A stretch of DNA of 64,000 nt from Nannocystis bainbridge (lineage in GTDB: Bacteria > Myxococcota_A > Polyangia > Nannocystales > Nannocystaceae), in assembly GCF_028368995.1 (NCBI RefSeq), contig NZ_JAQNDL010000004.1, positions 384,001 to 448,000 on the forward strand, written 5' to 3'. Below are positions 28,773-50,768 of the stretch, one piece after another (position 1 is the stretch's first letter; each line of letters opens with the position of its first letter). A program made the translations under genes and the position numbers. The notes beneath the pieces were generated by a model. The model worked only from the letters and a program-made list of their open reading frames with translations, did not search any database and had not been told where the DNA came from.

Positions 28773-29780
28773 TCACAGCAGGCCGTAGCGGACCAGGTGG
28801 TCGGGGGAGCGCTGCCACAGGTGGCCGACCACGGCGGTGGCGGCCTCGTCGAAGCGCTCGGCGCCGGCGCGCAGGCGGCGGTACACCGGGGAGGCGTCCC
28901 GGACGTCGTAGGCGAGGAGGTCGAGGGCGCGGCGGGTGTCGGGCTCGGCGAGGGCGGCGAGGAAGGCGTCGTAGGCGGTGACGAGGCCGGCGCACAGGGG
29001 GAGGCCGTCCAGCGGGCGCAGGGCGTCGGCGATCCGCAGCAGCGGCGGGCGGGGCAGCTGCTCGGCGAGCCAGCCGTCGCGGGCCTCGTCGGGCAGCAGC
29101 GCGGCGCGGCAGAACACGGCGAGGTTGGCGAGGTGCCACAGCTTGCGCGAGTGACGGAGCTTGAAGTAGCGGATGGCCCAGTGCTTGCCGGCGTTCTCGA
29201 CCTTGAACCGGTAGTCGACGCAGATCGTGCGGTAGTAGCGGTGGAGGTCGTTGCTCAGCGAGGTGAGGTAGCGGCCGCGGGTGATGGCGCCGGCCGTGTA
29301 GGCGCCGAACACCTGCTCGACGATGGCGGCGGCGTCGCCGGCGTTGGCCAGCCAGGCGCCCTCGGTCAGCAGGAGGGCGCGGTAGGTCAGGTGATCGTTG
29401 CTGTCGTCGCGGCCGCCGATGTCGCCGAGCAGGTCGTCGAGGACGACGGCGCTGTGGAAGGTCTTGTCGGGGACGTCGAGGCCGCGGGCGCGCAGGGCGG
29501 CGGCCAGGGCCTCGCGCGCGCCGTCGGCGTCGACGGGGGCGATGGCGCCGCGGCGGTAGACGACGGCCAGGTCGAGGTCGCTGAGGGCGCTCGACTCGTG
29601 GCGGCCGAGCGAGCCGAGCGCGAAGGCGGCGCAGCCTGGCGGGACGGCGCCGACGAGGGCGCGTCGCAGCTCGGCCAGGCGGGCGTGCGAGCCGGCGGCG
29701 GCGGCGAGCACGTGGGACGCGTCGGCTGCGGTCAACCCGAGCTCGGCGAGCAGCGGCGCGTAGTCGACCGGTCCGCGCAT
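28773..29780 (-). CDS. Pol-beta-superfamily nucleotidyltransferase with helical C-terminal domain
   Basis: LGSLGRHESSALSDLDLAVV = GS..DxD motif; C-terminal NDLHRYYRTICVDY..WAIRYFKLRHSRKL. Confidence 0.8.
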   Translation of the reverse strand: MRGPVDYAPLLAELGLTAADASHVLAAAAGSHARLAELRRALVGAVPPGCAAFALGSLGRHESSALSDLDLAVVYRRGAIAPVDADGAREALAAALRARGLDVPDKTFHSAVVLDDLLGDIGGRDDSNDHLTYRALLLTEGAWLANAGDAAAIVEQVFGAYTAGAITRGRYLTSLSNDLHRYYRTICVDYRFKVENAGKHWAIRYFKLRHSRKLWHLANLAVFCRAALLPDEARDGWLAEQLPRPPLLRIADALRPLDGLPLCAGLVTAYDAFLAALAEPDTRRALDLLAYDVRDASPVYRRLRAGAERFDEAATAVVGHLWQRSPDHLVRYGLL

Positions 29781-29781
29781 G

Positions 29782-30879
29782 TCAGATCTCCGGGCCCTCG
29801 GCGCCGGGTATGACTGTCCATCGGGACATGTCCTCATGGACATGGTCGTCGAGCGTGATCGGCAGGGTCAGCTGGGCCGCGGCGTGGCGCGGGCTGACGA
29901 ACGCGAGCTGACGGCTGTGACGGTAGCGGCGCGACCACTGCGGGCGAGCGAGGCCGTGCGGACCGGGGGCGACGGTGGCGTCGACGAAGTAGCGCTTGTG
30001 CACGCGCGGGACCACGTCGTCGCCGCCGGGCGGGGGCACGCGGGTGCTCTGGAAGCGGTCGTCTTGCCCTTCGGACAGGCCGCTGCGGCGCGCGTGAGTC
30101 TCGACCAGGCCGCGCAGGGCGGCGTCGTCGAACTCGGCGAAGCGGGCGAAGATCCGGTGGTCGAACGCGTCGGCGACCGCGCGCGACAGCTCGGCCTCGC
30201 ACACGATGTTGGAGGGCAGGTTGATGACCTCGCTGTAGATCCGGTCCTTGAGGTTCCAGAAGCGGTCGATGACGGGGAGCGCGTCGGGGTCGATGAGCAG
30301 CTCGCGGCCGCGGCGGACGAACACGGCCCGCGGCAGGCGCACGCCGGCGCGGCCGAAGGTGCGGGCGGTGCGGACGATGCCGTCGAGGGTGTCGAGGTTG
30401 ATCGGGGCGAGCAGCAGGGCCGAGAGGTCGAGCGCGAGGCCGTCGCCGCGGCCGCCGATGATGGCCCACACGCGCTCGGGGTCGAGGTCGACGCTCTGCA
30501 GCACGGGGCGCAGCGAGAGGGCCTCCGGGATCGCGCCGTTGCCGAGGACGATCCACTCGCTGACGCCGTGGTGGGCGACGCCGAGGGCCCGCTCGAAGCC
30601 CGGCTCGGCCGCGTGCGACAGCGGGAAGTGGCCGATGTCGTGCAGCAGGCAGGCGGCGACGAAGTGGCGCAGATCGGCCTCGGCGAGGCCCAGCGCGGCG
30701 CCGAAGCGGTGACCGAGGGTGGCGACGCCGAGCGAGTGGTCGAGGCGGGTCGCGGGGTCGTGGCTGCGCGGGTGCCAGTCGAGGGTGCCGAGGAAGCTGA
30801 CCCGACCGAGGCGCTGCACCCACGACGAGTCGAGCAGCGGAGCGCCGAGCAGACGGACGAGGGCCGGGGGGGGAGGCAC
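29782..30879 (-). CDS. HD-domain phosphohydrolase (SAMHD1/dNTPase-like family)
   Basis: VQRLGRVSFLG, TRLDHSLGV, LLHDIGHFPLSH, NLDTLDGIVR; start estimated at GTG 30879. Confidence 0.85.
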   Translation of the reverse strand: MPPPPALVRLLGAPLLDSSWVQRLGRVSFLGTLDWHPRSHDPATRLDHSLGVATLGHRFGAALGLAEADLRHFVAACLLHDIGHFPLSHAAEPGFERALGVAHHGVSEWIVLGNGAIPEALSLRPVLQSVDLDPERVWAIIGGRGDGLALDLSALLLAPINLDTLDGIVRTARTFGRAGVRLPRAVFVRRGRELLIDPDALPVIDRFWNLKDRIYSEVINLPSNIVCEAELSRAVADAFDHRIFARFAEFDDAALRGLVETHARRSGLSEGQDDRFQSTRVPPPGGDDVVPRVHKRYFVDATVAPGPHGLARPQWSRRYRHSRQLAFVSPRHAAAQLTLPITLDDHVHEDMSRWTVIPGAEGPEI

Positions 30880-31050
30880 GGCCCTCGGACGCTGGCACAG
30901 GCCCGCGGTGCTGCCAAGGGGGGACGCCGCGGCGCTCGCCGCAGCGTCACGCAGACAGGCCGTGAGGTGCGGGTCGGATCGCCGCGTGTCGGCCTGCGTC
31001 GGGCCCGCTTGCAAACCGGCGCGCGCTCTGCGAAGCCATGCGGCGACGGC

Positions 31051-31554
31051 ATGACGAAGAAGTCCGCGAAGATCCGCTGTTGGCTGATGAAGAGCGAGCC
31101 GGACGTGTTCTCGATCGACGATCTGCAGCGGCTCGGCAAGACCGCCTGGGAGGGCGTGCGCAACTACACCGCCCGCAACTCGATGCGCGACGACATGAAG
31201 ATCGGCGACCTGGTGATCTTCTACCACTCGAGCGTCGAGCCCGCCGGCGCGGTCGGGCTCGCTCGCGTGTGCAGCGCGCCGTACCCCGATCCGACCCAGT
31301 TCGACGAGAAGAGCGAGTACCACGATCCCAAGGCGACCCGCGAGGCGCCGCGGTGGATCCTCGTCGACGTCGAGTTCGTCGAGAAGTGGCCGGCGATGGT
31401 GACGCTGCAGGCGCTCAAGGCCGACAAGAAGCTGAAGGACATGCTGGTGGTGCAGAAGGGTCAGCGGCTGAGCGTGCAGGCGGTCGAGCCGCGCCACTTC
31501 GTGCACGTGCTGCAGCTGGCCGGCAGCGCGCAGGGCGAGGCGGTGTCGGCGTGA
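31051..31554 (+). CDS. EVE domain protein
   Basis: WLMKSEPDVFSIDDL, WEGVRNYTARN, MKIGDLVIFYHS, YPDPTQFD, RLSVQ. Confidence 0.93.
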   Translation: MTKKSAKIRCWLMKSEPDVFSIDDLQRLGKTAWEGVRNYTARNSMRDDMKIGDLVIFYHSSVEPAGAVGLARVCSAPYPDPTQFDEKSEYHDPKATREAPRWILVDVEFVEKWPAMVTLQALKADKKLKDMLVVQKGQRLSVQAVEPRHFVHVLQLAGSAQGEAVSA

Positions 31555-33335: not shown

Positions 33336-34121
33336 GTGCGCGCGACGTTTGCAGCGGTGACGGAGCGGCAGAGCCTGGCGCCAGGTGAGGTCCACGTGTG
33401 GCTGTGCGCGGCCGAGACGCAGGTCGACGCCGACTGGTTGGCGGCGGCGCGCGGGCTGCTGAACCCGGAGGAGCAGGCCCGCCAGGATCGCTTCGTGTTC
33501 GAGCGCAACCGCCGGCAGTTCGCGGTCGCGCGGGTGCTGGTGCGCCAGATCCTCGCCGGCTACACGGGGATCGCGGCAGCCGAGCTGCGCTTCGTCGCCA
33601 ACGAGTACGGCAGGCCGGCGCTGGCCCTGGCCGGCGCGCTCGAGTTCAACCTGTCGCACACCGACGGGCTGGCGGCGCTGGCGGTGACCCGCGTCGGCGA
33701 GATCGGGGTCGACGTCGAGGACGCCGAGCGACGCGCGCGGCCGGAGGAGGTGGCCGACCACTTCTTCGCGCCGAGCGAGGTGGCGGGGCTGATGGCGCTG
33801 GAGACCGAGCAGCGGCGGGCCCGGTTCTTCGACCTGTGGACGCTGAAGGAGGCGTACATCAAGGCGCGCGGGATGGGCCTGGCGATCCCGCTGGACGCGT
33901 TCGCGTACGACCTGTCGCGCGGGCGCGCGGCGATCGATCTGGCGATCGACGCGTCGCTCGGCGATCCGCGCGCGGGCTGGGAGTTCTTCCTGGAGGACCC
34001 GACGCCGCGCCACCGCCTGGCGCTGGCGGCCCGCTTGCCCGCGAGGGAACCCGCGCGGATAACGTATCGGTGGGTCGGTCCGGCCGGGCACGGGCGGCTC
34101 GGCCTGCGAGATGGTCCTTGA
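33336..34121 (+). CDS. Sfp-type 4'-phosphopantetheinyl transferase
   Basis: YGRP, FNLSHT, IGVDVE, FFDLWTLKEAYIKARGMGL; exact start uncertain. Confidence 0.92.
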   Translation: MRATFAAVTERQSLAPGEVHVWLCAAETQVDADWLAAARGLLNPEEQARQDRFVFERNRRQFAVARVLVRQILAGYTGIAAAELRFVANEYGRPALALAGALEFNLSHTDGLAALAVTRVGEIGVDVEDAERRARPEEVADHFFAPSEVAGLMALETEQRRARFFDLWTLKEAYIKARGMGLAIPLDAFAYDLSRGRAAIDLAIDASLGDPRAGWEFFLEDPTPRHRLALAARLPAREPARITYRWVGPAGHGRLGLRDGP

Positions 34122-34170
34122 GACATGTTTTTATGGACATGTCCGAACGGACCTGTTCTTCACGACCTGT
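34110..34170. repeat. 14-bp phased palindrome array, convergent junction
   Basis: GATG 34110; CATG 34124, 34138; CCTG 34152, 34166. Confidence 0.85.
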
Positions 34171-34212
34171 GATGCCGCGGCGCGACGGGATTCACTCGAA
34201 CGTGCGCGGCCC

Positions 34213-34250
34213 GAAAGCGAAACGACCGCCCCGGGGCTCCGGAGCGGTCG
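34213..34250 (-). terminator. Probable intrinsic terminator of trpS
   Basis: Stem CGACCGC/GCGGTCG plus CCGG/CCGG (34223-34250), followed on the minus strand by TTTCGCTTTC. Confidence 0.6.
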
Positions 34251-34272
34251 CTGGGCGGCCTGGCGGCGGGGC

Positions 34273-35352
34273 TCAGCCCTTCTGGCTGTAGAAGGGCTTC
34301 TTGCGCTCCTCGGCGCGCGACTGGGTGGCGTGCACGAGGCCTGACCACAGGTTCTCGAGGCCCATGGCGTCGCGGACCTTGCCGAGGGTCTCGTAGGCGA
34401 CCTTGCGGGCGGTGATGGTGCCGTCGACGATGATCTCTTCAGTGCGGTGCTTGTCGGCCGCGAACTCGGACCGGCGCTCGCGGATCGGGACCAGGGTCTT
34501 CTCGAGCGCCTCGATGACGCGGTCCTGGACGGCGGCGAAGCCGATGGCGCCGCGGTCGTACTCGGCGCGGAGGTTGGCCAGCTCCTCGGCGTCGCGCAGG
34601 AAGGCCTCGGCGAACAGGAACAGCGGGGCGTCGGTCGACTCGCCGGGGGCCGGGCCGGGCAGGGTGCGGATCTTGCGAGCGACCTCCTCGGGGCTGTCCT
34701 TGAGCCAGATCGCGTTGCCGGCCGACTTCGACATCTTGCGCTCGGCACCGCCGGCGACGGTGTTGACGCCCGGCAGCGACGGGGTCGCCGAGATGGTGGC
34801 CTGCGGGACCGCAAACACGCGGCCGTAGGCGTCGTTGAAGTGCTGGGCGATGTCGCGGGCGAGGGTGACGTGGGTCTCGTTGTCGGCGCCGACCGGCACG
34901 AGCTCGGCGTTGGCCATGAGAATGTCGGCGGCCTGGAGCACCGGGTAGCCGAGCAGGCCGAGCGGCACGTCAGCGTCCTTGAGGCCGGCGTTGACGGCCA
35001 TGTCCTGGATCGACTGCATGCCCGACAGCCGCGCCACCGGGGTGAGCATCTGCAGCAGGATGGCGATGTCGTAGACCGCCGGTACGCCCGACTGGAGGTA
35101 GATCGTCGAGCGGCCGGGGTCGACGCCCACGCTGAGCATGTCGAGCACCACGTCGCGCACGTGGTTCGGCAGGCGGGCAATCTCGTCGCGCCGCGAGCGG
35201 GTCGTGAGCGAGTGCAGGTCGGCGACGATGATGAAGCACTCGTGGCTGTCCTGCAGTTTGACCCGGCTCTGCAGGGTGCCGACGAGGTGACCGAGGTGAA
35301 GCGGCCCCGTGGGGCGATCACCAGTGAGCAGTCGCGGTTTGCGAGCTTCCAT
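34273..35352 (-). CDS. trpS: Tryptophan--tRNA ligase
   Basis: LTGDRPTGPLHLGH (HIGH), YPVLQAADIL, VPVGADN, KMSKS. Confidence 0.93.
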   Translation of the reverse strand: MEARKPRLLTGDRPTGPLHLGHLVGTLQSRVKLQDSHECFIIVADLHSLTTRSRRDEIARLPNHVRDVVLDMLSVGVDPGRSTIYLQSGVPAVYDIAILLQMLTPVARLSGMQSIQDMAVNAGLKDADVPLGLLGYPVLQAADILMANAELVPVGADNETHVTLARDIAQHFNDAYGRVFAVPQATISATPSLPGVNTVAGGAERKMSKSAGNAIWLKDSPEEVARKIRTLPGPAPGESTDAPLFLFAEAFLRDAEELANLRAEYDRGAIGFAAVQDRVIEALEKTLVPIRERRSEFAADKHRTEEIIVDGTITARKVAYETLGKVRDAMGLENLWSGLVHATQSRAEERKKPFYSQKG

Positions 35353-35419
35353 CGAGTTCAAGGGTCAAGGCCGGCTCTCCCTGTGTCAAGCCAACGGGTT
35401 CGCGCATCGCGGAACGACA

Positions 35420-35445
35420 CACAGCTGTCTCATGGGACAGCTGTG
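35420..35445. promoter_or_regulatory. Inverted repeat upstream of trpS
   Basis: CACAGCTGTC-TCATGG-GACAGCTGTG; its core is a TGTCT-CATG-GGACA 14-mer. Confidence 0.5.
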
Positions 35446-35557
35446 CGTGGACCTGCGACTCGGGCTTGCAAAGAGGGGGTGACCAAATGCGAAGCGCCGC
35501 GACCGAAGGCGGTCACGGCGCATCCGCGCTCCGCGGATCTGGCGGCTGCGAACCAGA

Positions 35558-35941
35558 TCAGCGCAACGCTTCACGCAGGCGCGGCTTGATGTCCGGGAGC
35601 ACCACGCTGACGAGGATGCCGAGCTGCGCCTTGCTGCAGTCGACGGCCATACCCCAGCGATACTTGTCGGTGAGGTCGACCACCACGATCATGACGATGC
35701 CCTCGTCGCCGAGGCGGAGCATGGTCTCGTTCAGATAGTCGGGGACGGGCAGACCCGACTTCTTGATCGTCTCCATGATGCGCTCACAAAGGATGTTGAA
35801 GAGCGCGCACGCCTTGGGGCTGCTGCGAACGCCGGCGACCGACATGCCGGACGTTTTGCTGAAGACGTCGGAGGCGGCCAGGCCACCCATCAGACCGTCT
35901 TCCACCTCAGCGAGCAGTTGGTTTACGACTTTGAGATTCAT
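35558..35941 (-). CDS. Roadblock/LC7-like small protein
   Basis: 127 aa alpha/beta pattern; GMSVAG, C-terminal AQLGILV; GGA RBS. Confidence 0.55.
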   Translation of the reverse strand: MNLKVVNQLLAEVEDGLMGGLAASDVFSKTSGMSVAGVRSSPKACALFNILCERIMETIKKSGLPVPDYLNETMLRLGDEGIVMIVVVDLTDKYRWGMAVDCSKAQLGILVSVVLPDIKPRLREALR

Positions 35942-36091
35942 TTCGAGTTCCTTCGTGATCCGTGCAGTCGGTGCCAGGTCATGGTAGCCGTGGCGCGGGG
36001 CGACAATCTATCACTTTTTGCACGATCCGGACAGCCGTCCAAACGGCCCGAGCGGCGCGCCGCACGTGGCCGCAAGGCCCGTTCGGCGCGG

Positions 36092-36559
36092 TCAGAAGCT
36101 CAGCCCGCGGATCGGCGGCGGCGCGTCCTGCTGCGTCTCCTTGAGGTAGTGCTTCGCAGCCCTCCGCAGCAGCGCCTTGAGATCCTCGGTGTCCCAGGGC
36201 TTCGTGACGTACTGCCACATCAAACCCTCGTTGAGGCCGCGAATTACCACGTTGATGTCGGAGTAGCCGGTGATCAGGATGCGCACCGGCGTCGGGTTGA
36301 TCTCCTTGAGCTTGCCGAACAGCTCGACACCCGTCATCTCCGGCATGCGCTGGTCGCTGAGAACCAGCTGAATGTCGCTGGCCCGGAAGATCTGCAGCGC
36401 CTCGGTGCCCGAGTTGGCGGTGTAGACCTTGAACATGTCGCGGAAGCTCTCCTCCAGCGTGTTGAGGATGCCCCGCTCGTCGTCGACGATGAGCAGCGAG
36501 AGGACCTGCTTGTCCTCTTGGCCGATCGTGCCGGTCTTCTGGAATTCCTTCCAACTCAT
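36092..36559 (-). CDS. Single-domain response regulator (receiver)
   Basis: LLIVDDE, LVLSDQRMPEMTGVE, ILITGY, YVTKPW. Confidence 0.92.
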   Translation of the reverse strand: MSWKEFQKTGTIGQEDKQVLSLLIVDDERGILNTLEESFRDMFKVYTANSGTEALQIFRASDIQLVLSDQRMPEMTGVELFGKLKEINPTPVRILITGYSDINVVIRGLNEGLMWQYVTKPWDTEDLKALLRRAAKHYLKETQQDAPPPIRGLSF

Positions 36560-36791
36560 GCAATACCTCGCTTCTCGCTGGGCAACCGGTCGTAGCGCGG
36601 GGAACCCTCGACGCGAGAGAGAGTCTGCTCCGTTCGCGCATGGTGGCAGGGGCGCATCCGGTTCGCAAGGGCCCCTTGGAGCCGCTCGCAGGAGCGCTGG
36701 TGGAGCGAGCCAGGGCCGGGGAGGCCGTGGCGCCCGGAGGACCTCGAAAGCGACCCGTGAGGCCTGCTAGGGCCTTTTCGCGCGTGAGTGG

Positions 36792-38207
36792 TCACAGTAA
36801 ATCTCCTGTACCACCGTCCGCTCCGCGCACGTAGCGGAAAGTGGACGCAAAGTGGCGAATTCCGGGGGCTTCGACCTCGAAGCGAAGGCCGTGGCGCATG
36901 CGCTGGCCCTTCTCTTCGAACACGGTGCGCACCACGTCGGCGACGTACTCGAGGTGCTCCATGGTGTAGACGCGGCGCGGGATGGTGATCCGGCACAGGT
37001 CGAGGTTGGGGCGGATGTTCTCGCCGGTGTCAGGATCGCGGCCGATGAGGACGCTGCCGACCTCGACCGCGCGCACTCCGCCCTCTTTGTAGAGCTCGAC
37101 GCAGAGCAGCTGGCCGGGGAACTCGTCCTCGGGCACGTTGCCGAAGAAGCGCCGCGCGTCGATGAACACCGCGTGACCGCCGAGCGGCTCGACCAGCGGC
37201 ACGCCAGCGGCGCTGAGCAGCTCGCCGAAGCGCTTGACCTGACCGATGCGGTAGGTGAGGTACGGCTCCTCGGTGACCTCGCGCAGGCCCTGCGCCAACG
37301 CCTCCATGTCGGCGCCCGACATGCCGCCGTAGGTGTAGAAGCCCTCGAACAGGATCGTCGGCGCCTTGAGGCGCTCGTACAGCAGGTCGTCGCGCACGGC
37401 GATGAACCCGCCCATCGGCACGAGCGCGTCCTTCTTCGCGCTCATGATCGCCGCGTCGGTGTAGCTGCACATCTCGGCGACGATCTCCGGGATCGTCTTG
37501 GTCGCGTAGCCGGGCTCGCGGTGCTTGATGAACCACGCGTTCTCGGCGAAGCGCGCGGCGTCGAGGATGACGAGGAGGCCGTACTGGTCGGCGATCCGCC
37601 GCACCTCGCGGATGTTCTCCATCGACACCGGCTGACCGCCGCCCGAGTTGCAGGTGACCGTCATCAGGATGTACGCGACGTGGCGCGGGCCGTACTCGCG
37701 GATGACGCTCTCGAGCTTGGCCAGGTCGACGTCGCCCTTGAACGGGTGGTAGCCCGTCGAGCTGCGGCCGGCGTCGATCGTGCAGTCGATCGCGCGGCCG
37801 CCGGCGAATTCGATGTGCGCCTTGGTCGTGTCGAAGTGCGAGTTGCCGGGCACGATCATGTGCTTTTTGATCAGCACGAAGTCGAGCACGCGCTCGGCGG
37901 CGCGACCCTGGTGGGTCGGGATGGTGTAGCGGTACCCCATCGTCTCGCGGATCTGCCGCTCCATCTCGAAGAAGGAGCGTGAACCGGCGTAGGCCTCGTC
38001 GCCGATCATCATGCGGCCCATCTGGGCCGCCGAGAGGGCTCCGGTGCCGGAGTCGGTCACGAGGTCGATGTACACGTCGTGCGATGCGAGGCGGAACAAG
38101 TTGTTGCCGCACGCCTCGATCCGCCGGACCCGCTCCTCATAAGGGAGCAGCGCGATCGGCTCGACGACCTTCGCCTTGTACGGGATGATCTGTCTGGCTC
38201 TGCTCAT
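36792..38207 (-). CDS. tnaA: Tryptophanase (beta-eliminating lyase)
   Basis: IDLVTDSGT, GDEAYAGSRSF, THQGRAAE, MSAKKD (PLP Lys), IPRRVYT. HFDTT, EVGS and RHF match tryptophanase rather than tyrosine phenol-lyase (FTTT, ERG, RFF). Confidence 0.88.
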   Translation of the reverse strand: MSRARQIIPYKAKVVEPIALLPYEERVRRIEACGNNLFRLASHDVYIDLVTDSGTGALSAAQMGRMMIGDEAYAGSRSFFEMERQIRETMGYRYTIPTHQGRAAERVLDFVLIKKHMIVPGNSHFDTTKAHIEFAGGRAIDCTIDAGRSSTGYHPFKGDVDLAKLESVIREYGPRHVAYILMTVTCNSGGGQPVSMENIREVRRIADQYGLLVILDAARFAENAWFIKHREPGYATKTIPEIVAEMCSYTDAAIMSAKKDALVPMGGFIAVRDDLLYERLKAPTILFEGFYTYGGMSGADMEALAQGLREVTEEPYLTYRIGQVKRFGELLSAAGVPLVEPLGGHAVFIDARRFFGNVPEDEFPGQLLCVELYKEGGVRAVEVGSVLIGRDPDTGENIRPNLDLCRITIPRRVYTMEHLEYVADVVRTVFEEKGQRMRHGLRFEVEAPGIRHFASTFRYVRGADGGTGDLL

Positions 38208-40288
38208 GGGCTCTCCGCGGCCTTGGCGGCCCCTTCGGTCCTCGTGCCCGGGTCCTTGGGCTCGGTCGGGATCCGAATGAGGAAGGTTACCCCCGCCGTT
38301 TCATTGCGCGTCACTGCGATGGTCCCCTGGTGCTCCATCACGATCCGGTAGCTGATCGACAGGCCCAATCCTGTCCCCTTGCCGACCGGCTTGGTGGTGA
38401 AGAAGGGATCGAAAATCTTCGAGAGGTTGGCTTCCGAGATGCCTTCGCCGTCGTCCTTGACCGCGATCTCGACCCAGGCGCCGTTGACCCGCGTGTCCAC
38501 GTGAACTTCGCCCCCGCGCGGGGTGGCGTCGATCGCGTTGTTCACGAGGTTCAGTACTACCTGGTTGAGCTTGGCAGGGAAGCAGGCGTAAGGGCGCGTC
38601 AGCGTGAGGTCGGACGTCAACTTGACGCCCTGGTCGCGCGCGTTGTTGGAGAGGATCATCAGGGTCTGACGGATCCCCTCGTCGATGTCGGCGTTCTGGA
38701 ACTGCGCCTCGTCGAGGCGGGCGAAGTTGCGGAGCCCGAGCACGATCTCGGCCATGCGATCGAGGCCGATGAAGCACTCCTCGAGCACCTTCTGCGTGCG
38801 CGCGAGGACCTCGTCGAGCGAGCCTTCCTTCTGCTCGCGGCTCTGGCTGACGTAGCTGAAGAACATCTTGAGCAGCTCGAGCTGCTTCGGCGCGGGCATG
38901 CTGCCGAGGTCGGCGATGACGTCCTTGGCGTCGGAGCCGATGTCTTTGTCTTCCTTCAGCTTGTCGAGGATCGCCCGGGCCGCGCTGACGCGCGCATGCG
39001 GGTCGCCGCCGGCGTCGGCCTCGAGCCAGCGCTGGACCGCGAGCCGCCGCGCGACCTTGAGGACGCGCTCGTGGGCGAGGTGCGTGTTGTTGCGGCTGAA
39101 GGCCAGCGGGTTGTTGATCTCGTGGGCGACGCCGGCGGTGAGCTGGCCGAGGCTGGCGAGCTTCTCGCCCTGGACGAGCTGGGCCTGGGTCTGCTTGAGC
39201 TCGACGAGGCTCTCCTGGAGGCCCTCGTAGAGCTGGTTGTTCGTCAGCGAGATCGCGGTCTGGCTGGCGAGCGAGAGCGTCAGCTCGAGCGCGGCGTCGT
39301 CGTACGGGAGGACGACGCTGTCGATGTCGGCGGCCGTCAGCGTGGCGGTGCGCGAGATCTTGCGGTTGATGAGCTGGAGGACGCCGATGACCTGGTCGTC
39401 CTGGTTCTTCATCGGCAGCACGAGCATGCTGCGCGTGCGGTAGCCGGTGCGCTGATCGAAGGCGGGGTTGAAGCTGTACTCGGCCTTGGGATCGAGCAGG
39501 TAGGCGTCAGGGATGTTGACGGGCTCGCCGGTGACGGCGACGTAGCCGGCGAGGGTGCTCTTCGAGACCGGGATGGTGAACTTGACCAGCTCGAGGTGCG
39601 GCAGCGAGTCGTTCTGCGAGTTGTTGAAGCGCAGGCGCCTGGTGCCGGACGCGTCCTTCTCGACGATGTAGAGCGAGCCGGCGTCGGAGCAGGTGAAGTC
39701 GCGGGCGGTGGTGAGGATGAAGTCGAGGAGCCGCTCCTGATCACGCTCGGTCGACAGGGCGATGCCGATGCGATTGAGCTTGGTGATCTCGCCGGCGAGG
39801 CGGCGACGCTCGGCCTCGAGGCCGAGCAGACGATCGTCGGCGGCGGCGTCGCGGAGGGCGGTGCGGAGCGCGACCTGGAGCGCGGCGGCACCTGGCTCCG
39901 GGGACAGGATCGAGGAGAGCACGTCGCCGAAGCGCTGCTGCAGCGCGTCGGCGCCGGAGCCCGGCAACATGCTGATGATGCGGGTGGGGCCGACGGGCTG
40001 GAGCTCGACGCGGCCGTCGTCGCAGAGGAGGTGCTCGTCGAGGAGGACGATGCACGACCGACCGGCGCGCCGCGTGGCGACGACGGTGCCGAGCTCGCGC
40101 GGAGCGACGGGTCGCAGCTCGCCGGACGAGCGGCACAGAGCGGCGGTCGCCGAGCCGGCGAAGGCCGCCGAGCACAGCAGCAGCGGGGTCAACGGCTCGG
40201 GACGAGGCGCAGGCACAGGCCCGGTGGGTCCGGCCGCGTCACCCGGGGGCGCGGTGCTGGCTGCGTCGTCGGCCTGCACAGTGTTCAT
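38204..40288 (-). CDS. Cytoplasmic GAF-domain sensor histidine kinase
   Basis: PDE-type GAF ([43 protein letters not shown]), [34 protein letters not shown]; no TM; stop overlaps tnaA start. Confidence 0.92.
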
Positions 40289-40441
40289 GATGGTCGGAGA
40301 ACCGGAGCGCAAAAACAAGAGTCACCGCTGCATCTGCACGACGTGAGGTCGGTGCCCGCGGACCCACACCGACGTCGCGACGACGACGCGGCGCGGGCTG
40401 CACCCGCGACGCGTCGAAGTCCTCAGCGGACGATACCGCGC

Positions 40442-41812
40442 TCACATGTTGACTTCGGGCAGCTCGGCCAACGCCGCCTCGATCGCCGCCTGCGGGTAGG
40501 CGTAGTCGGTCAGCTCGCCGCGGAAGTAGGCGTCGTAGGCCGTCATGTCGAAGTGGCCGTGGCCGCAGAGGTTGAACAGGATCACCGGCGAGGTGCCCTC
40601 TTCCTTGGCGCGGATGGCCTCGCGGATCACCTGAGCCACGGCGTGGCCGGCTTCGGGCGCGGGGACGATGCCCTCGGCGCGCAGGAAGGTGACCGCCGAC
40701 TTGAAGGCCTCGAGCTGCGGGACCGAGTAGGCCTCGATCAGCTTCTGGTCGTACAGCTCGCTGATGACGCTGCCGACGCCGTGGTAGCGCAGGCCGCCCG
40801 CGTGCACCGGCGGCGGGATGAACTTGGCGCCGAGCGTGTGCATCTTGACCATCGGCGCCATGCCGGCGGTGTCGCCGTAGTCGTAGGCGTACACGCCGCG
40901 CGTGAGGGTCGGGCAGGCCGCGGGCTCGACCGCGACGACCCGCACGTTGCGGCCGTGGACGATCTTGTCGCGCAGGTAGGGCACGGCGATGCCGGCGAAG
41001 TTGCTGCCGCCGCCGACGCAGCCGACGATGATGTCGGGGCTGTCACCGGCGCGGTCGAGCTGCAGCATCGCCTCCTGGCCGATGACCGACTGATGCATCA
41101 GCACGTGGTTCAGCACCGAGCCGAGCGCGTACTTGTACTTGCCGCCGCTCTTGGCCGCCATCTCGACGGCCTCGCTGATGGCGATGCCGAGGCTGCCGGT
41201 GCTGTCCGGATCCTGGGCCAGGATCGATCGCCCCGACTCGGTGCGGTCGCTCGGGCTGGCGGTGACGTTGGCGCCGAAGCTCTGGATGATCGCGCGCCGG
41301 TACGGCTTCTGGTGGAAGCTGACCTTCACCATGAAGACGTGGCACTCGAGGTTGAAGAAGTTGCAGGCCTGCGACAGGGCAGTGCCCCACTGACCCGCGC
41401 CGGTCTCGGTGGTCAGGCCGACGACGCCGGCCTGCTTGTTGTAGAAGGCCTGCGGGATCGCGGTGTTCAGCTTGTGGCTGCCGCTCGGCGAGACGCCCTC
41501 GTACTTGTAGTAGATCTTCGCCGTGGTCCCGAGGGCCTTCTCCAGGCGCCTGGCCCGCATCAGCGGCGTGGGGCGCCACAGCTTGTAGATCTCCCGGACC
41601 TCCTCCGGGATGTCGATGAAGCGCTCGCGCGAGACCTCCTGGTTGATGATCTCCGCGGGGAACAGCGGCAGCAGGTCGTCTGGAGTAACCGGGCTCTTGG
41701 TACCGGGGTGCAGGACCACGGGGAGCGGGCGCGGAAGATCGGCCTGGATGTTGTACCAACGTGTCGGAATTGCGCTCTGGGGGAGTTCAAAACGCGTCAG
41801 GGACTCGGTCAT
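40442..41812 (-). CDS. trpB2: TrpB2 (TrpB-like PLP enzyme, stand-alone tryptophan synthase beta)
   Basis: IPTRWYNIQADLP, WRPTPLMRARRLE, GSHKLNTA, TETGAGQWG, GSVLNHV, GGGSNF, HAGGLRYHG. Confidence 0.93.
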   Translation of the reverse strand: MTESLTRFELPQSAIPTRWYNIQADLPRPLPVVLHPGTKSPVTPDDLLPLFPAEIINQEVSRERFIDIPEEVREIYKLWRPTPLMRARRLEKALGTTAKIYYKYEGVSPSGSHKLNTAIPQAFYNKQAGVVGLTTETGAGQWGTALSQACNFFNLECHVFMVKVSFHQKPYRRAIIQSFGANVTASPSDRTESGRSILAQDPDSTGSLGIAISEAVEMAAKSGGKYKYALGSVLNHVLMHQSVIGQEAMLQLDRAGDSPDIIVGCVGGGSNFAGIAVPYLRDKIVHGRNVRVVAVEPAACPTLTRGVYAYDYGDTAGMAPMVKMHTLGAKFIPPPVHAGGLRYHGVGSVISELYDQKLIEAYSVPQLEAFKSAVTFLRAEGIVPAPEAGHAVAQVIREAIRAKEEGTSPVILFNLCGHGHFDMTAYDAYFRGELTDYAYPQAAIEAALAELPEVNM

Positions 41813-42151
41813 TCGCGGCGCTCCAGTCTCGCTCGACCTTTATATCGCGAGGCGTCGCTGCGACAAAGGCCCACGGGTCGGTCGCGGCCTCGGCTTTCGT
41901 CGGCGGGCTGCGGTCCTTGCCCCGTGTTCGCCGAGGTGCACCCCGAGCCGTAGATCGGCTGTTCTTTGGGCCATGCGCCGCAATTCGCGGGGCGCGCCGG
42001 CCGCTGCGCCCGGCGCCCGTGCGCATGCGCGTGGACGCGCCGGGTCGGCAAAACCGGCTGAAACGGGCTTCTGGGGCCATTTGGCGGGCCTCGCCGCGGC
42101 GCGCTTCGGCCGATGCGCGCGGAGTCACGGACCGCGGCGCGCGGACAGGTG

Positions 42152-43870
42152 TCACCGCCGCTTTGCCGCGCGTAGGCGCGCGAAGTACTCGCGGTAGGCC
42201 CGCATCGTCACGCCGGCGAACAGCAGCGTGATCGGGATGTTGACCCACAGCATCACGCCAGTGCCGACCGAGGTGATGTTGTCGAGTTCAGCCTCGGTGC
42301 TGATCCAGCCTGCGCAGGCGAGCAGGATGCTCAGGCAGTAGACGATCTTGTACGGGACGACTGACCGCCGTCCCGCCATGTAGACCATGCCCTGCTCGCC
42401 GTAATAGGCGTACGAGATCATGGTCGACACCGCGAACAGCCACGAGGCCACGGCCACGAGCCACTTCCCGAGCCCCGGGGCCACGCGATCGAAGGCGTGG
42501 CTGGTCAGCGCGGCGCCGACGTAGTCCTTGTAGACGTCGAGGCCTGCGAGCGCAGGCGCGCTGGCGAGCGGCGCCGCCGGGGAGCCCACCGGAGACCAGT
42601 CGACATAGAGGCGATCTCCCGCCCCGACAGCGACGACGCCGCTGACTCGCTGCAGGTCGCCGCCGGTGGCCGGATCGATCGGGCCGTAGCGCGCGAGCAT
42701 GAACACCCCGTCGCCGGGCCGCCAGCCGGTGCCGGTGATCGCCAGCGCCTGCGCATGTTTCTCGGGCAATGGCGTATCGGACAGGTCCCAACAGCCAGGT
42801 TCGATCTGGACCGCGGCCGGCGGGGCGGACAGCGAGGCCTCGCCGTCGCGACACCAGGCGCCGCTGGCCAGCACGACCAGCGAGGTGAGGGTGCAGACGA
42901 CGAGGGTGTCGATGAAGGGCTCGAGGCCGGCGACCACGCCCTCGCGCACGGGCTCGTCGGTCCGCGCGGCGCAGTGGGCGATCGGCGAGGTGCCCTGGCC
43001 GGCCTCGCTCGAGAACAGGGCCCGCTTCATGCCCCACACGAAGGCGGCGCCCGAGGTGCCGCCGACGAACGCGCCGGCGGCGTCGGCTGGGGAGAAGGCG
43101 GAGGCGACGATGAGGCGCAGCATCGCCGGGATGTCGGCGACGTGGACCGCGAGCACGTAGAGGGCGGCGGCGAGGTAGAGGAAGCACATCGCCGGGACCA
43201 GGGCGCCCGCGACGGCGCCGATCCGCTTGATGCCGCCGAGGATGACGGCGCCGACCAACAGCGCGAGCACGACGCCGACGGCCTGCTGCGGCACGCCGAA
43301 GCTCTCCTCGGTGACGATGCCGACGTTCCACGCCTGGAACATGTTGCCGCCGGTGAGCGTGCTGATGAGGAGGGTGATGCAGAACAGGACGCCGAGGACG
43401 CGGCCGACGGGCCGCAGCTTCTCGCTGCGCTGGGCGAGGCCGTCGTCGGCGACCCACATCGGCCCGCCGCTCGGCTCGTCCGGGTTGTCGGTGCGCCGGT
43501 ACAGCATCGACAGCGTGACCTCGGTGGTCTTGAGCGCCATGCCGGCGATGCCGACCATCCACATCCAGAACACCGCGCCCGGGCCCCCGAGCGCGATGGC
43601 GACGGCGACCCCGCCGATGTTGCCGAGGCCCACGGTGGCCGACAGCGCGGCGGAGAGGGCCTGGAAGTGGCTGATGGCCCCGGGCGCGTCGGGCTTGTCG
43701 TAGTCGCCGCGGATGATGGCGACGCCGTGGGTGAGCGCGTGGTACTGGCAGAAGCCGCTCCACACGGTGAACAAGAGGCCGGTGGCCATCACGGCGTAGA
43801 GCACGCTGTCGTGCCACAAGACCGCGTTGATGGCCGTCAGCCAGTCGTTGATGGCGATCCAGATCTCCAC
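42152..43870 (-). CDS. Alanine/glycine:cation symporter (AlsT/AgcS family)
   Basis: ISHFQAL..ATVGLGNIGGVA, GGPGAVFWMW, GGPM, GGIKRIG, LEPFIDTLVVC, YYGE. Confidence 0.92.
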   Translation of the reverse strand: MEIWIAINDWLTAINAVLWHDSVLYAVMATGLLFTVWSGFCQYHALTHGVAIIRGDYDKPDAPGAISHFQALSAALSATVGLGNIGGVAVAIALGGPGAVFWMWMVGIAGMALKTTEVTLSMLYRRTDNPDEPSGGPMWVADDGLAQRSEKLRPVGRVLGVLFCITLLISTLTGGNMFQAWNVGIVTEESFGVPQQAVGVVLALLVGAVILGGIKRIGAVAGALVPAMCFLYLAAALYVLAVHVADIPAMLRLIVASAFSPADAAGAFVGGTSGAAFVWGMKRALFSSEAGQGTSPIAHCAARTDEPVREGVVAGLEPFIDTLVVCTLTSLVVLASGAWCRDGEASLSAPPAAVQIEPGCWDLSDTPLPEKHAQALAITGTGWRPGDGVFMLARYGPIDPATGGDLQRVSGVVAVGAGDRLYVDWSPVGSPAAPLASAPALAGLDVYKDYVGAALTSHAFDRVAPGLGKWLVAVASWLFAVSTMISYAYYGEQGMVYMAGRRSVVPYKIVYCLSILLACAGWISTEAELDNITSVGTGVMLWVNIPITLLFAGVTMRAYREYFARLRAAKRR

Positions 43871-43995
43871 GAGCGGACGAGGGCCGCATGATGGCGGCCC
43901 GACCTGCGCGGCGCAATGACCGGGGCGGGGCCAGGCGAGCGGTCGGCGACTTTGCTGGATTAATTAAAGGAGAGGCGCGGCGGCCGGCCCGCGGC

Positions 43996-44970
43996 TCAGC
44001 CGGCCGGGGCGGATGGGGCCACCGGGGGCGGGCTCGCGGCGGCGGCGGACTGGCCGGCGGCGAGCGGCGTGGCGGGGCTCGTCATCGGCGTCGCGGGCGG
44101 GTCGGCGGCGTCTGCGGGCGCGGGCTTGCCGAGCTGCGGGGCGTCAGGACGGATCCCCGGCGGGACCTCGACGCGCTCGCCGACTGTGATGAGGCTGGCG
44201 TAGCGGAGCAGGCTGACCTTCACCAGCAGATCGGAGAAGGCCCACTCGGTCTCGAAGTTGGTGGCGACGGGGATGTCGACCGCGCCATCGGGGCCGGGCG
44301 CGGGCAGCTCGCGCGAGGGGACGCGCGTGGGTGGGCCGTAGACGCGGGTGTAGTGGGCGACGGCGTCCTCGTAGTCGGCGAGCGCGGGCGCGGGGTCCTT
44401 GGCGGTGCGCTGGTACGAGACGTGGCGCAGCGGATGATCGACGCTGTCGAACACGAACAGCAGGCGGCCCTCGGACCGCGGCCGCGGGCGATCGGTGAGC
44501 TGCTCGCTGCGGGTCTTGGGGCAGCTGAAGCGGACCTGCGGGTTGGCCTCGCGCTTGCTCTTGCGATCGAGCCACGAGGCGGCGGTGACAGCGTCCTCGC
44601 CGCGGGCGCGGGCGTCCTCGAGGCGCTTGCGCTCGACCTTGCGGCGACCCTCCATGCTGGCGCGGATCGAGGTGTCGCCGCAGGCGAGGCCGAGGCGCGC
44701 GGCGAGGGCCTCGGCGTCGGCGACGTGGTGGCGGCCGACGTCGGTGTGCATGGCGACGGTGACGGGCGCGCGCGGCCCCGGGCGCGGATCTTTGAACTCG
44801 AAGCGCCACTCCTGCTCCCTGCGCGCGAACAGGCCGGCGAGGCCGGAGCCGGTCGCGGTCGCGGTCGGCTGGGTGGGCTCCGCGGCGGGCTCGGGCCGCT
44901 GTTCGCCAGCGCCGCAGGCGGCGAGGCCGAGGACGCAGGCGAGAAGGGTGAGGCGCGAGGCGAGCAGCAT
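43996..44970 (-). CDS. Hypothetical lipoprotein
   Basis: MLLASRLTLLACVLGLAAC lipobox; high-GC3 coding pattern. Confidence 0.7.
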   Translation of the reverse strand: MLLASRLTLLACVLGLAACGAGEQRPEPAAEPTQPTATATGSGLAGLFARREQEWRFEFKDPRPGPRAPVTVAMHTDVGRHHVADAEALAARLGLACGDTSIRASMEGRRKVERKRLEDARARGEDAVTAASWLDRKSKREANPQVRFSCPKTRSEQLTDRPRPRSEGRLLFVFDSVDHPLRHVSYQRTAKDPAPALADYEDAVAHYTRVYGPPTRVPSRELPAPGPDGAVDIPVATNFETEWAFSDLLVKVSLLRYASLITVGERVEVPPGIRPDAPQLGKPAPADAADPPATPMTSPATPLAAGQSAAAASPPPVAPSAPAG

Positions 44971-47360: not shown

Positions 47361-48095
47361 TCAGGACCGGCGGAGACGGAGGCGGAGGCACAGGCCGACG
47401 GCCTCGAGGGCGATCGCGGGCGTCATCTTCGACGCGCCGCGCTCGCGGTCGGGGAACACGATCGGCAGCTCGCGCGCGCGCCTGCCGGCGCGCACGAGGC
47501 GGTACTTCATCTCGATCTGGAAGCCGTAGCCGCTGGCGGCCACGGCGCTGCGATCGAGGGCGGCGAGAGCGGCGCGGCCGTAGCAGACGAACCCGGCGGT
47601 CGGGTCGCGCAGGCCGAGGCCGAGCAGGGTGCGGGCGTAGAGGCCGCCGCCGCGCGACAGCAGGCGGCGCCCGAGGCTCCATCCGCGGGTGCCGCCGCCG
47701 GGCACGTAGCGCGAGCCGATCGCAAAGTCGGCGCCGGTCTCGCCGACCGCGGCGACCAGGCCCGGCAGGTAGGCGGGGTCGTGCGAGAAGTCGGCATCCA
47801 TGGTGATGATGTGGGTGAAGCTGTCCTCGTGCCGCAGGGCCCAGTCGATGCCGGCGAGGTAGGCGCGGCCGAGGCCCTGCTTGGCGGCGCGGTGGAGGAC
47901 GTGGACGCGGGCGTCGGCGGCGGCGAGGCCGTCGGCGAGGGCGCCGGTGCCGTCGGGGCTGGCGTCGTCGATGATGAGCACGCGCGCGTCGGGCAGCGCG
48001 GTGAGGATCGCCGCGGTGATCGGCTCGACGTTGTCGCGCTCGTTGTAGGTCGGCACGAGCACGAGCGGGCGTGGGCGATTGGCGGCGGCGCTCAT
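47361..48095 (-). CDS. Polyprenol monophosphomannose synthase-like GT2
   Basis: PTYNERDN, DDASPDGTG, GLGRAY, MDADFSHDP, GSRYVPGG, GYGFQIEM, FPDRERGASK. Confidence 0.92.
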   Translation of the reverse strand: MSAAANRPRPLVLVPTYNERDNVEPITAAILTALPDARVLIIDDASPDGTGALADGLAAADARVHVLHRAAKQGLGRAYLAGIDWALRHEDSFTHIITMDADFSHDPAYLPGLVAAVGETGADFAIGSRYVPGGGTRGWSLGRRLLSRGGGLYARTLLGLGLRDPTAGFVCYGRAALAALDRSAVAASGYGFQIEMKYRLVRAGRRARELPIVFPDRERGASKMTPAIALEAVGLCLRLRLRRS

Positions 48096-48160
48096 GGCAG
48101 GCAGCCCGCGCAGAGTACCCCGCGCCGGCGCAGGGTTGCGAGGCCGCGCGCCGGGCTGCT

Positions 48161-48808
48161 ATGTTGTCGCCCGCCCAGGTTGCCACGGTGCGACGGATCC
48201 GCTGCCATTACGCGTCCGGAGAGGCCTTTACGGCGGCGCTGCGCGCGGCCGGCGACGATCAGGCGCTGCAGGTCTTCACGACCGAGCGCTTCGAGCCCGG
48301 CGAAGAAGTGCTCGCGGAGGTGTTCTTCACCGGCATGAACGGGAAGATGCTGGTCCGCGCGATCGGCAAGAAATGGCACATGGCGCGCCCGCGCCTGCGC
48401 GTCCGCGCCGGTGGGGTGCTCCGCTGCGCGGGGAGCGAGTGGCGCAAGCTTCAGTTTCTCCGCGAGGTGGCGCTCGGGCGGGCGACCATGGCACCGCGGC
48501 GACGGCACCTGCGCCAGCCGGTTTTGGTCGAGATCCGCTGGCGGCGCAGCGACGGCAATGACCTGATGCCGGCGACGATCTCGGAGATCTCCGAGGCCGG
48601 CGCGCTGCTCCTGACGGACGCGGGACTCACGCTCGGGGAGGAGATCATCATCGAGATCACGACCCCGGGGGGCGCGCGCCCGCTCGAGCTGACCTCGGTC
48701 GTGCGCAACACCCAGCACCCCGACGGGGTCGGCGTCGAGTTCATGCGCCGCACCTCCGGCGGGCTGACGCGGATCCGCGAGGTCATCCGCCGGCTCGTGG
48801 ACCAGTGA
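48161..48808 (+). CDS. PilZ-domain protein
   Basis: RRRHLR (RxxxR), EISEAG (D/NxSxxG-like), GVGVEF. Confidence 0.75.
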   Translation: MLSPAQVATVRRIRCHYASGEAFTAALRAAGDDQALQVFTTERFEPGEEVLAEVFFTGMNGKMLVRAIGKKWHMARPRLRVRAGGVLRCAGSEWRKLQFLREVALGRATMAPRRRHLRQPVLVEIRWRRSDGNDLMPATISEISEAGALLLTDAGLTLGEEIIIEITTPGGARPLELTSVVRNTQHPDGVGVEFMRRTSGGLTRIREVIRRLVDQ

Positions 48809-50620: not shown

Positions 50621-50768
50621 AGCATGTTCTTTCGGACATGTGGAATCCGAGCGGGCGCACACGGCATGTTCGAGAGAACATGTAGTTCCAGACATGTCTC
50701 TATGGACATGTCCTCGAAGGCATGACCTATCGGGCATGACCTATCGGGCATGACCGATCGGGCATGTC
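50621..50768. repeat. Longest 14-bp phased array, convergent junction
   Basis: CATG 50623, 50637, (none at 50651), 50665, 50679, 50693, 50707, 50721, 50735, 50749, 50763. Confidence 0.95.

Follow-up and report, generated by a model that had tools for sequence, protein, structure and literature searches.

What is a tryptophanase gene doing between the two genes of a signalling pair? The question is raised by a locus of Nannocystis bainbridge (assembly GCF_028368995.1, genome of 11.05 Mb with about 72% GC), where tnaA lies between the genes of a soluble histidine kinase and a stand-alone receiver. We analysed the 64,000 nucleotides at positions 384,001 to 448,000 of contig NZ_JAQNDL010000004.1 (G000:C4:384001-448000), hereafter the window, in whose numbering all coordinates for this species are given. 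From comparison with relatives, kinase-tnaA-receiver is a conserved unit in three genera of the Nannocystaceae, to which, in two of the three, a gene for a Roadblock-fold protein also belongs. In N. bainbridge this unit belongs to seven open reading frames (ORFs) on the minus strand at 34273-43870, which in order of transcription are agcS-trpB2-kinase-tnaA-receiver-roadblock-trpS:

42152..43870, minus strand: agcS, symporter of the Na+/alanine-glycine family (PF01235, 380 bits; TIGR00835, 398 bits; 69 hydrophobic windows)
40442..41812, minus strand: trpB2, TrpB-like pyridoxal phosphate (PLP) enzyme, a proposed indole scavenger (NF009057, 710 bits, cut-off 366; TIGR01415, 608 bits)
38204..40288, minus strand: soluble histidine kinase of 694 residues (GAF, HisKA and HATPase_c domains; the ORF extends to a TTG at 40318)
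36792..38207, minus strand: tnaA, tryptophanase (NF009709, 629 bits, cut-off 285; PF01212, 260 bits)
36092..36559, minus strand: stand-alone receiver of 155 residues without an output domain (PF00072)
35558..35941, minus strand: Roadblock/LC7-fold protein of 127 residues (predicted model and Foldseek)
34273..35361, minus strand: trpS, second tryptophanyl-tRNA synthetase (TrpRS), of the TrpRS II type (TIGR00233, 254.6 bits, cut-off 176.75; HLGH and KMSKS motifs)

The initial annotation, made from the sequence alone, had listed six of these genes with the symporter upstream, and all are real ORFs at the positions that it gave. Its gene calls hold throughout, "roadblock" being confirmable by fold comparison alone. 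The overlap that it had noted between the kinase stop and the tnaA start is seen directly in the sequence, where ATGA at 38204-38207 serves both; tnaA is predicted to be translationally coupled to the kinase gene. For two given single-copy genes to fall within 7.6 kb of tnaA in a genome of 11.05 Mb the probability is about 2e-6, and the gene order is retained in other Nannocystis species; chance clustering is therefore not a credible explanation.

Conservation of the arrangement was followed at three levels. Among 20 loci examined around TnaA matches in relatives, the full series from agcS to trpS was present in four long-contig Nannocystis genomes; in a fifth genome (G009) trpS is absent downstream of the module, and two loci truncated by contig ends are consistent as far as they extend. 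Genome G013 has the order roadblock-kinase-tnaA-receiver and G011 kinase-tnaA-receiver, while the remaining 11 loci, with TnaA 40-50% identical, have no partner genes. A named genome collection yielded 79 tnaA loci. All ten from Nannocystis carry cluster genes. Near the 69 others (TnaA 38-63% identical) no kinase, roadblock, trpB2 or trpS gene was found at a coverage of at least 0.5 and E of at most 1e-5; two of them have weak receiver matches and one a 38% agcS match. The closest TnaA outside the family, at 63% identity (L115), has a BamA-like and an ABC-F gene as flanking neighbours.

The third level was a survey of 73 genomes from 17 genera of the family, with TnaA counted at 71% identity or more. 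TnaA occurs in 20 of these, comprising 11/11 genomes of Nannocystis (g1, which includes N. bainbridge itself), 7/7 of genus g4 and 2/5 of genus g2. The kinase sensor is found in 22, all of g1, g2 and g4, and in none of the other 14 genera. Kinase and TnaA are both present in 19 genomes and adjacent in 18, the exception (G002) being split by contig ends, so that the synteny of tnaA with a histidine kinase, which the initial annotation had proposed to look for, is conserved in relatives. In g2 and g4 the two ORFs overlap by 4 or 1 nucleotides and the receiver gene follows tnaA after 20-32 nucleotides. This packing is kept at a kinase identity across the three genera of only 52-57%, which argues for selection on the arrangement. 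The roadblock family was detected in 23 of the 73 genomes, again only in g1, g2 and g4 (0/50 elsewhere at E of at most 1e-10). Its gene adjoins the module in 10/11 Nannocystis genomes, a contig end interrupting the locus of G008, and in all seven g4 genomes it immediately precedes the kinase; in g2 it is unlinked to the module and stands next to a Ser/Thr kinase gene. At the two g4 loci examined (G013 and G059) a divergent receiver gene adjoins roadblock, and in G013 it encodes a receiver-DUF4388 protein. The earlier idea of six genes forming one unit thus survives for the conserved linkage of tnaA to the two-component pair and fails for trpB2 and trpS, whose adjacency is limited to Nannocystis.

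Three genomes of g2 (G054, G055 and G056, which are 86, 87 and 60% complete) carry the orthologous kinase followed directly by the receiver, and no tnaA was found anywhere in them at E of at most 1e-60. The relay therefore does not depend on TnaA. The kinase-receiver spacers of these genomes hold no tnaA remnant above chance, which leaves loss and gain of tnaA indistinguishable. Two of them have a same-strand gene for a receiver-GGDEF-EAL protein immediately before the kinase (L142 5919-7661; L143 9722-11476), which ties the relay to cyclic di-GMP turnover. We also observed a split in base composition within g2: loci with tnaA, namely those of G011 and one of G057 (L039, L146), have a GC content of 0.61-0.62 and those without it (L142-L144) 0.72-0.74. 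The single g2 label may hide two lineages.

The tnaA gene is present in a single copy. Its product carries the PLP-lysine motif SAKKD, which aligns with that of solved enzymes. Two pocket positions, Thr124 and Phe448 in the phenol-lyase and Asp and His here, presumably set substrate specificity. TnaA has Asp126 (NSHFDTT) and His452 (RHF), as in tryptophanase 8sbg, whereas the tyrosine phenol-lyases 9j3u and 2ez1 have Thr (NMYFTTT) and Phe (RFF) in these columns. Among the NCBI models only the subfamily model NF009709 was passed; TnaA scores below the equivalog cut-offs of TIGR02617 (480 against 826) and NF053783 (566 against 750), and also below that of the tyrosine phenol-lyase model TIGR02618 (522 against 721). 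By its pocket residues the cluster enzyme is a true tryptophanase, with predicted catalytic activity. The available part of PMC10435759 scores each of the nine strains described as negative for indole production, among them three Nannocystis species, and two of these three species possess the cluster (L058 and L059). Such scoring fits tight regulation or recapture of indole. No tryptophanase gene or endogenous indole source in myxobacteria was described in the open-access literature searched.

The histidine kinase has an intact H-box and intact N, G1, F and G2 boxes, and its motifs, GTGLGL included, align with ZraS and other solved kinases. A start at the ATG at 40288 (694 residues) is more likely than one at the TTG at 40318. 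The protein is taken to be soluble because its Kyte-Doolittle hydropathy stays at or below 1.6 in every 19-residue window. An AlphaFold2 model of residues 1-370, with a predicted local distance difference test score (pLDDT) of 87, begins with a disordered head, after which come the receiver-like domain, a long helix and the GAF domain. The parts of the kinase referred to below are:

39908..40183, minus strand: receiver-like domain, residues 36-127 (AlphaFold2 model, alternating strands and helices)
39299..39739, minus strand: GAF domain, residues 184-330 (PF01590)
39122..39124, minus strand: codon of His389, the predicted phospho-acceptor (H-box AHEINNPL, by alignment with those of ZraS, 3a0r and KinB)

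In the alignment of orthologs Asp84 of the receiver-like domain is invariant and the acidic pair and lysine of true receivers are missing; we therefore read it as a pseudo-receiver. The receiver-GAF dual-sensor kinase 6oap aligns with the sensor model over 354 columns. For the GAF domain, phmmer returned CyaB2 (1ykd, 2.4e-19) and PDE5 (4.8e-19), and the top Foldseek matches were 4mcw (a GAF-HD-GYP protein), PDE2A, PDE5A and CyaB2. The domain thus has its best matches in sequence and fold among cyclic-nucleotide-binding GAFs and 4mcw. The likeness goes no further than sequence and fold. In the present protein the domain comes after a pseudo-receiver and signals into a histidine kinase.

The whole pseudo-receiver-GAF module, at 45-57% identity, also heads a large family of HD-GYP proteins of about 644 residues (P0161-P0218 and others), some of them labelled Gemmatimonadales or Planctomycetota. 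It is a single sensor cassette serving two outputs, histidine kinases and HD-GYP phosphodiesterases. The initial annotation had the kinase wired to sense indole or tryptophan. That claim is weakened by the relays without tnaA and by a sensor that resembles the cyclic-nucleotide type and is shared with HD-GYP proteins. Because the module recurs in other phyla and the GAF is nearest to cyclic-nucleotide binders, it is unlikely that this kinase senses indole or tryptophan. A further peculiarity of the kinase is an insertion of about 100 residues (approximately 400-505) between the H-box helix and the second dimerisation helix. It is kept in all aligned orthologues, and solved kinases align only on both sides of it.

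In an alignment of 32 receiver sequences, D26, D27, T97 and K120 are invariant, D69 is nearly so, and K120-P121 is conserved. The alignment places the phospho-acceptor as follows:

36353-36355, minus strand: codon of receiver Asp69 (receiver alignment, 32 sequences)

Since the receiver orthologue directly adjoins the kinase orthologue in the three relatives without tnaA, and the two proteins have a common distribution, they are considered a cognate pair, between which phosphotransfer is predicted.

The 127-residue protein encoded next has no Pfam match even at E of 10, and the Pfam model Robl_LC7 (PF03259) matched none of 29 members of its family at E of 1. Its predicted structure (pLDDT 90; predicted template modelling score 0.82) has the alpha-beta-beta-alpha-beta-beta-beta-alpha order of the Roadblock/LC7 fold. 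Foldseek gave 124 matches at E of at most 0.001, headed by Roadblock3 and MglB proteins, with template modelling (TM) scores of 0.81 for 9jue, 0.78 for 3t1s and 0.76 for MglB 6izw. Searching 1.84 billion representatives with a profile gave 272 relatives at E of at most 0.001. Among 30 longer relatives picked from the 150 listed, 19 have the architecture receiver-DUF4388-roadblock, seven DUF4388-roadblock, one an MCP signalling domain and three no other Pfam domain. The Roadblock-like domain is thus C-terminal in many receiver-DUF4388 (PATAN) regulators and in one MCP-domain protein (proteins P0296-P0435). Its fusion behind receiver-DUF4388 elsewhere suggests a non-transcriptional output of the relay, and the Roadblock-like protein is the likely partner of the receiver. 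A complex prediction with two Roadblock copies and the receiver, run without controls, scored 0.26 and 0.14 against a mark of 0.32, a result with no weight in either direction.

The genome holds four paralogues, the cluster copy included, the fourth being fused to DUF4388 (C3:742451-742819); the contexts of the other three, and of the closest copies in G011, G057 and G054, are unrelated. According to the accessible parts of PMC10329633, PMC12719032 and PMC4719450, the Roadblock proteins MglB and MglC of Myxococcus xanthus are linked to the response regulator RomR. The protein described here resembles them in fold (TM scores of 0.76-0.78 to MglB) and in having a response regulator in its gene context. 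It differs in a sequence identity of only 8-13%, in the lack of a Robl_LC7 match and in a family that is instead fused to receiver-DUF4388. No gene for an MglA-like GTPase lies inside the cluster; the search for MglA was not extended to the genome.

TrpB2 is distinct from the canonical tryptophan synthase beta chain of N. bainbridge (C3:1935756-1936784), to which it is 31% identical, and it scores far below the canonical trpB model (TIGR00263, 151 against 392). Counted at 71% identity or more in the 73 family genomes, its clade occurs in 19 of the 20 genomes with TnaA, in none of the three with the kinase only and in none of the 50 others. For the sole genome with TnaA and without TrpB2, G006, completeness is 84%, and tnaA stands at the very start of its contig. 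In g2 and g4 the two genes lie on different contigs, trpB2 adjoining the module only in Nannocystis, and at three g2 and g4 trpB2 loci examined (among them those of G011 and G013) the neighbours were unrelated to tryptophan. Of the co-occurrence of tnaA, trpB2 and the kinase that the initial annotation had asked about, the part that joins trpB2 to tnaA is genome-wide (19/20 genomes with TnaA); physical linkage of trpB2 outside Nannocystis is not found. A second TrpB2 clade, about 60% identical and present in seven genomes, is unrelated to the presence of TnaA. The pattern supports a functional link between TnaA and TrpB2, as would befit an indole producer and an indole scavenger. Tryptophan synthases of the TrpB2 type salvage indole in Thermotoga and Sulfolobus. 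The present enzyme is like these in passing the NCBI TrpB-like equivalog model and in sharing its genome with a canonical trpB. It differs in its strict co-occurrence with one TnaA clade and its adjacency to tnaA in one genus, a pairing not described in the papers searched; PMC11085991 deals, by its title, with indole salvage.

The looser association of the remaining genes begins with trpS. A housekeeping TrpRS that resembles ordinary bacterial enzymes is encoded at C3:1021109-1022107; it is 33% identical to the cluster enzyme and belongs to the type that almost all searched relatives possess. Among solved structures, the cluster TrpRS is nearest to 6ncr (E 1.4e-88), the "TrpRS II" structures 1yi8 and 2a4m (E 1e-65) and 2g36. 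The auxiliary TrpRS II of Deinococcus radiodurans (1yi8, 2a4m) is thus among them and is likewise a second copy, but the best solved match is 6ncr instead. In Deinococcus, TrpRS II is a partner of nitric-oxide synthase. Nine of the 11 Nannocystis genomes have the extra type, which also occurs in six other genera, there at 56-61% identity. Around the extra trpS genes of G019 and G023 none of the neighbours is related to tryptophan. In G023 the gene (L141 3722-4957) adjoins those of an ACT-domain 2-hydroxyacid dehydrogenase, similar to phosphoglycerate dehydrogenase, and of a SEFIR/TIR-domain protein. The symporter gene agcS is next to trpB2 only in Nannocystis.

Transcription was assessed from contigs of four runs recorded as RNA, which come from three studies (root, soil and rhizosphere) and represent relatives 88-99% alike. 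A contig of 2741 nucleotides runs from 38202, at the tnaA start, through the receiver gene to 35509, past the roadblock stop. Further contigs (35490-36921, 35699-36581 and 36395-37097) bridge roadblock and receiver or receiver and tnaA, and one (38022-38244) crosses the kinase/tnaA junction. The trpS contig (34288-35371) and the trpB2 contig (40427-41816) stand alone among those listed, and uncovered stretches are not evidence of silence. The expectation of co-transcription finds some support in contigs that bridge tnaA-receiver-roadblock and kinase/tnaA, and is not extended to trpB2 and trpS, for which the listed contigs are solitary. Two features in the spacers may bear on transcript ends and control:

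35522..35538, minus strand: GC-rich hairpin ATCCGCG-gag-CGCGGAT, 20 nucleotides past the roadblock stop (sequence reading)
35420..35445, minus strand: near-perfect palindrome CACAGCTGTC-n6-GACAGCTGTG, about 60 nucleotides upstream of trpS (sequence reading)

RNA-library contigs of two studies end 13-32 nucleotides beyond the hairpin (35509 and 35490), a weak hint that it may mark the end of a tnaA-receiver-roadblock transcript. The palindrome, mostly kept in the seven Nannocystis sequences aligned, could be an operator or a stem-loop. The spacer of 153 nucleotides between trpB2 and the kinase gene is GC-rich and has inverted repeats GCGGGTGCAGCCCGC (40360-40420), which could end the trpB2 transcript. 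Within the unit, the Nannocystis spacers measure 232 nucleotides (tnaA-receiver) and 150 nucleotides (receiver-roadblock). A motif GGCTACCAT (TAnnnT, -10-like) is present at 35981-35989, about 40 nucleotides upstream of the roadblock start, and in each of the three genomes without tnaA (L142-L144) the receiver gene is preceded by CTGGGCTACCAT; both may be internal promoters.

Other candidate elements were discarded or not found. A sigma-54 promoter suggested by TGGCAC...TGCA upstream of the roadblock gene was rejected, the spacing being GG-n8-GC and not n10. A promoter scan returned no sigma-70-like site. A terminator scan gave eight terminator-like sites where 3.4 were expected, seven on the plus strand and one on the minus strand upstream of agcS, so none of them marks the end of a cluster gene. 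No Rfam family matched 33500-44500 at E of at most 1, and a tryptophan attenuator was dropped on this result and on the single small ORF read in the roadblock-trpS spacer, which has no Trp codon. Footprinting of the spacers was uninformative, the seven aligned Nannocystis sequences being too similar.

We propose, as a tentative reading that stands slightly short of an even chance, that regulated indole production is tied to a non-transcriptional relay, with TrpB2, the spare TrpRS and the symporter gathered alongside in Nannocystis as homeostasis genes. A ligand, more probably a nucleotide-type messenger than indole, would act on the pseudo-receiver-GAF sensor; the kinase would then phosphorylate Asp69 of the receiver, which would work by contacting the Roadblock protein. 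The output might be of the polarity, motility or second-messenger type. With tnaA on the same mRNA as the relay genes, indole would be made whenever, and only when, these genes are expressed, and TrpB2, the constant companion of TnaA, would recapture it into tryptophan. In Nannocystis trpB2, the spare TrpRS gene and the symporter gene would be neighbours transcribed on their own, whose products buffer tRNA charging and the pool of tryptophan during TnaA activity.

Several points weigh against this proposal. All of its functional steps past gene identity are conjectural, and the assignment of the GAF ligand to the cyclic-nucleotide class derives from resemblance in sequence and fold. The relay persists without tnaA in three genomes, so TnaA may be a mere passenger. 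The receiver has no DNA-binding domain, and therefore the relay alone cannot explain how the operon is switched on. Both Nannocystis spacers hold -10-like motifs, which makes internal promoters possible, and the RNA contigs, being assemblies from libraries that possibly hold DNA and that offer no silent control stretch, are no proof of single transcripts. The co-occurrence of TnaA and TrpB2 comes from three related genera and one contrast of presence and absence within g2. Six genera with no TnaA match have the extra TrpRS type, and two genomes with the operon, G011 and G013, lack it. Finally, the negative indole tests may reflect poor growth in the test strips and not regulation.

A competing explanation is nutritional. 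TnaA would catabolise tryptophan from digested protein to pyruvate and ammonia, with indole as a by-product; it would sit in a kinase operon for convenient co-expression, and TrpB2, TrpRS and AgcS would be ordinary genes of amino-acid metabolism gathered by chance. The amino-acid symporter upstream agrees with this, as do a relay that works without TnaA in relatives, the restriction of the trpB2, trpS and agcS adjacency to one genus and the solitary trpB2 and trpS contigs among those listed. We nevertheless consider it unlikely. The overlapping stop/start packing is kept across three genera whose kinases are 52-57% identical, TnaA is never without an adjoining kinase in assembled family genomes (18/19), and TrpB2 tracks TnaA even when unlinked, as is expected if indole itself needs handling. 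Should the link nevertheless prove to be one in which a catabolic enzyme is merely co-expressed, the locus would count as a minor variant of an operon. A stronger role for TnaA, as the output of the relay, would follow if the phosphorylated receiver or the Roadblock protein bound the enzyme and switched its activity or location. Having no output domain, the receiver needs a protein partner in order to act; the tnaA gene is placed between those of kinase and receiver; and the cultures described in the available part of PMC10435759 are indole-negative despite an intact gene. Set against this, the relay exists without TnaA, the fusion of the Roadblock-like domain to receiver-DUF4388 elsewhere points to a partner other than TnaA, and the receiver-TnaA interaction is hypothetical, so that we judge such post-translational control improbable.

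The initial annotation had gone further, in proposing that the kinase GAF binds indole or tryptophan and that TnaA as "writer" and TrpB2 as "eraser" set a signal, read by the two-component system, possibly for cell-cell or prey sensing. Conserved kinase-tnaA coupling and the joint occurrence of TnaA and TrpB2 are in keeping with such a design. Indole induces myxospores in Stigmatella, as cited in the accessible part of PMC3126691, and a portion of PMC6550529 reports that enteric histidine kinases sense indole. Against it stand the orthologous kinase-receiver pairs of three genomes in which no TnaA and no TrpB2 was detected, the 45-57% identity of the module to that of HD-GYP proteins of about 644 residues, some of other phyla, and the nearest solved GAFs, which bind cAMP or cGMP. 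The data contain nothing on prey or cell-cell sensing. Of the writer/eraser pair, the genome-wide association of the two enzymes is retained and its reading by the kinase is judged unlikely; the model as a whole is doubtful. About equally doubtful is a bolder form of our own proposal, in which tryptophanase would be a diffusible arm of the phosphorelay. A kinase gated by a second messenger would drive both a CheY-like receiver, working inside the cell through a Roadblock/PATAN-type polarity or motility module, and the release of indole by co-translated TnaA to neighbouring cells as a developmental signal for sporulation or swarming. TrpB2 would be a cell-autonomous eraser, preventing a response of the producing cells to the signal that they send. 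If this is true, myxobacteria would have an indole signalling circuit of their own, built on an enzyme-in-operon design for which no two-component system offers a described example.

As a bacterial signal indole has been widely studied, and what is understood of its regulated production comes mainly from the enteric tnaCAB operon. In E. coli this operon is governed by the TnaC leader peptide with Rho-dependent termination and by catabolite repression, and the partner gene of tnaA encodes a tryptophan permease. The present locus shares with it a tryptophanase having the same PLP-lysine motif and the same two pocket residues (Asp and His); we also count as a likeness that indole production in the enteric system is regulated and not constitutive. 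As the initial annotation had maintained, the arrangement is otherwise different: tnaA overlaps the upstream histidine kinase gene and is followed by a receiver gene, and no TnaB-type permease lies in the cluster, whose transporter is of the AgcS family. Neither was a TnaC-type leader found, given the lack of an Rfam match in 33500-44500 and of a Trp codon in the small ORF of the roadblock-trpS spacer. The further assertion that no operon like this had been described agrees with the open-access literature searched, where none was found. That literature likewise describes no tryptophanase in a two-component operon, with the proviso that subscription papers could hold one. The locus is a genetically tractable candidate, in which a true tryptophanase within a two-component operon co-occurs with an indole scavenger. 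Two by-products of the analysis are a Roadblock-fold domain family missed by the Pfam model, C-terminal in many receiver-DUF4388 regulators, and a pseudo-receiver-GAF module common to histidine kinases and HD-GYP phosphodiesterases.

As to the surroundings of the cluster, its flanking genes are unrelated and include those for a ferrochelatase, a phosphopantetheinyl transferase and a DciA-like protein. Horizontal transfer was considered and rejected. The lower GC content of 34-42 kb (0.66-0.69) sits in the first and second codon positions, and the third-position GC of the cluster genes (0.86-0.95) is typical of the genome; the local dip is therefore no sign of foreign DNA. The window further holds an AAA_21 (AbiEii-like) ATPase gene (25741-26826), a DUF294-like ORF followed by an HD-domain ORF (28773-31506), a gene for a PilZ-domain protein (48071-48808) and one for a Ser/Thr kinase with TPR repeats (50767-53226).

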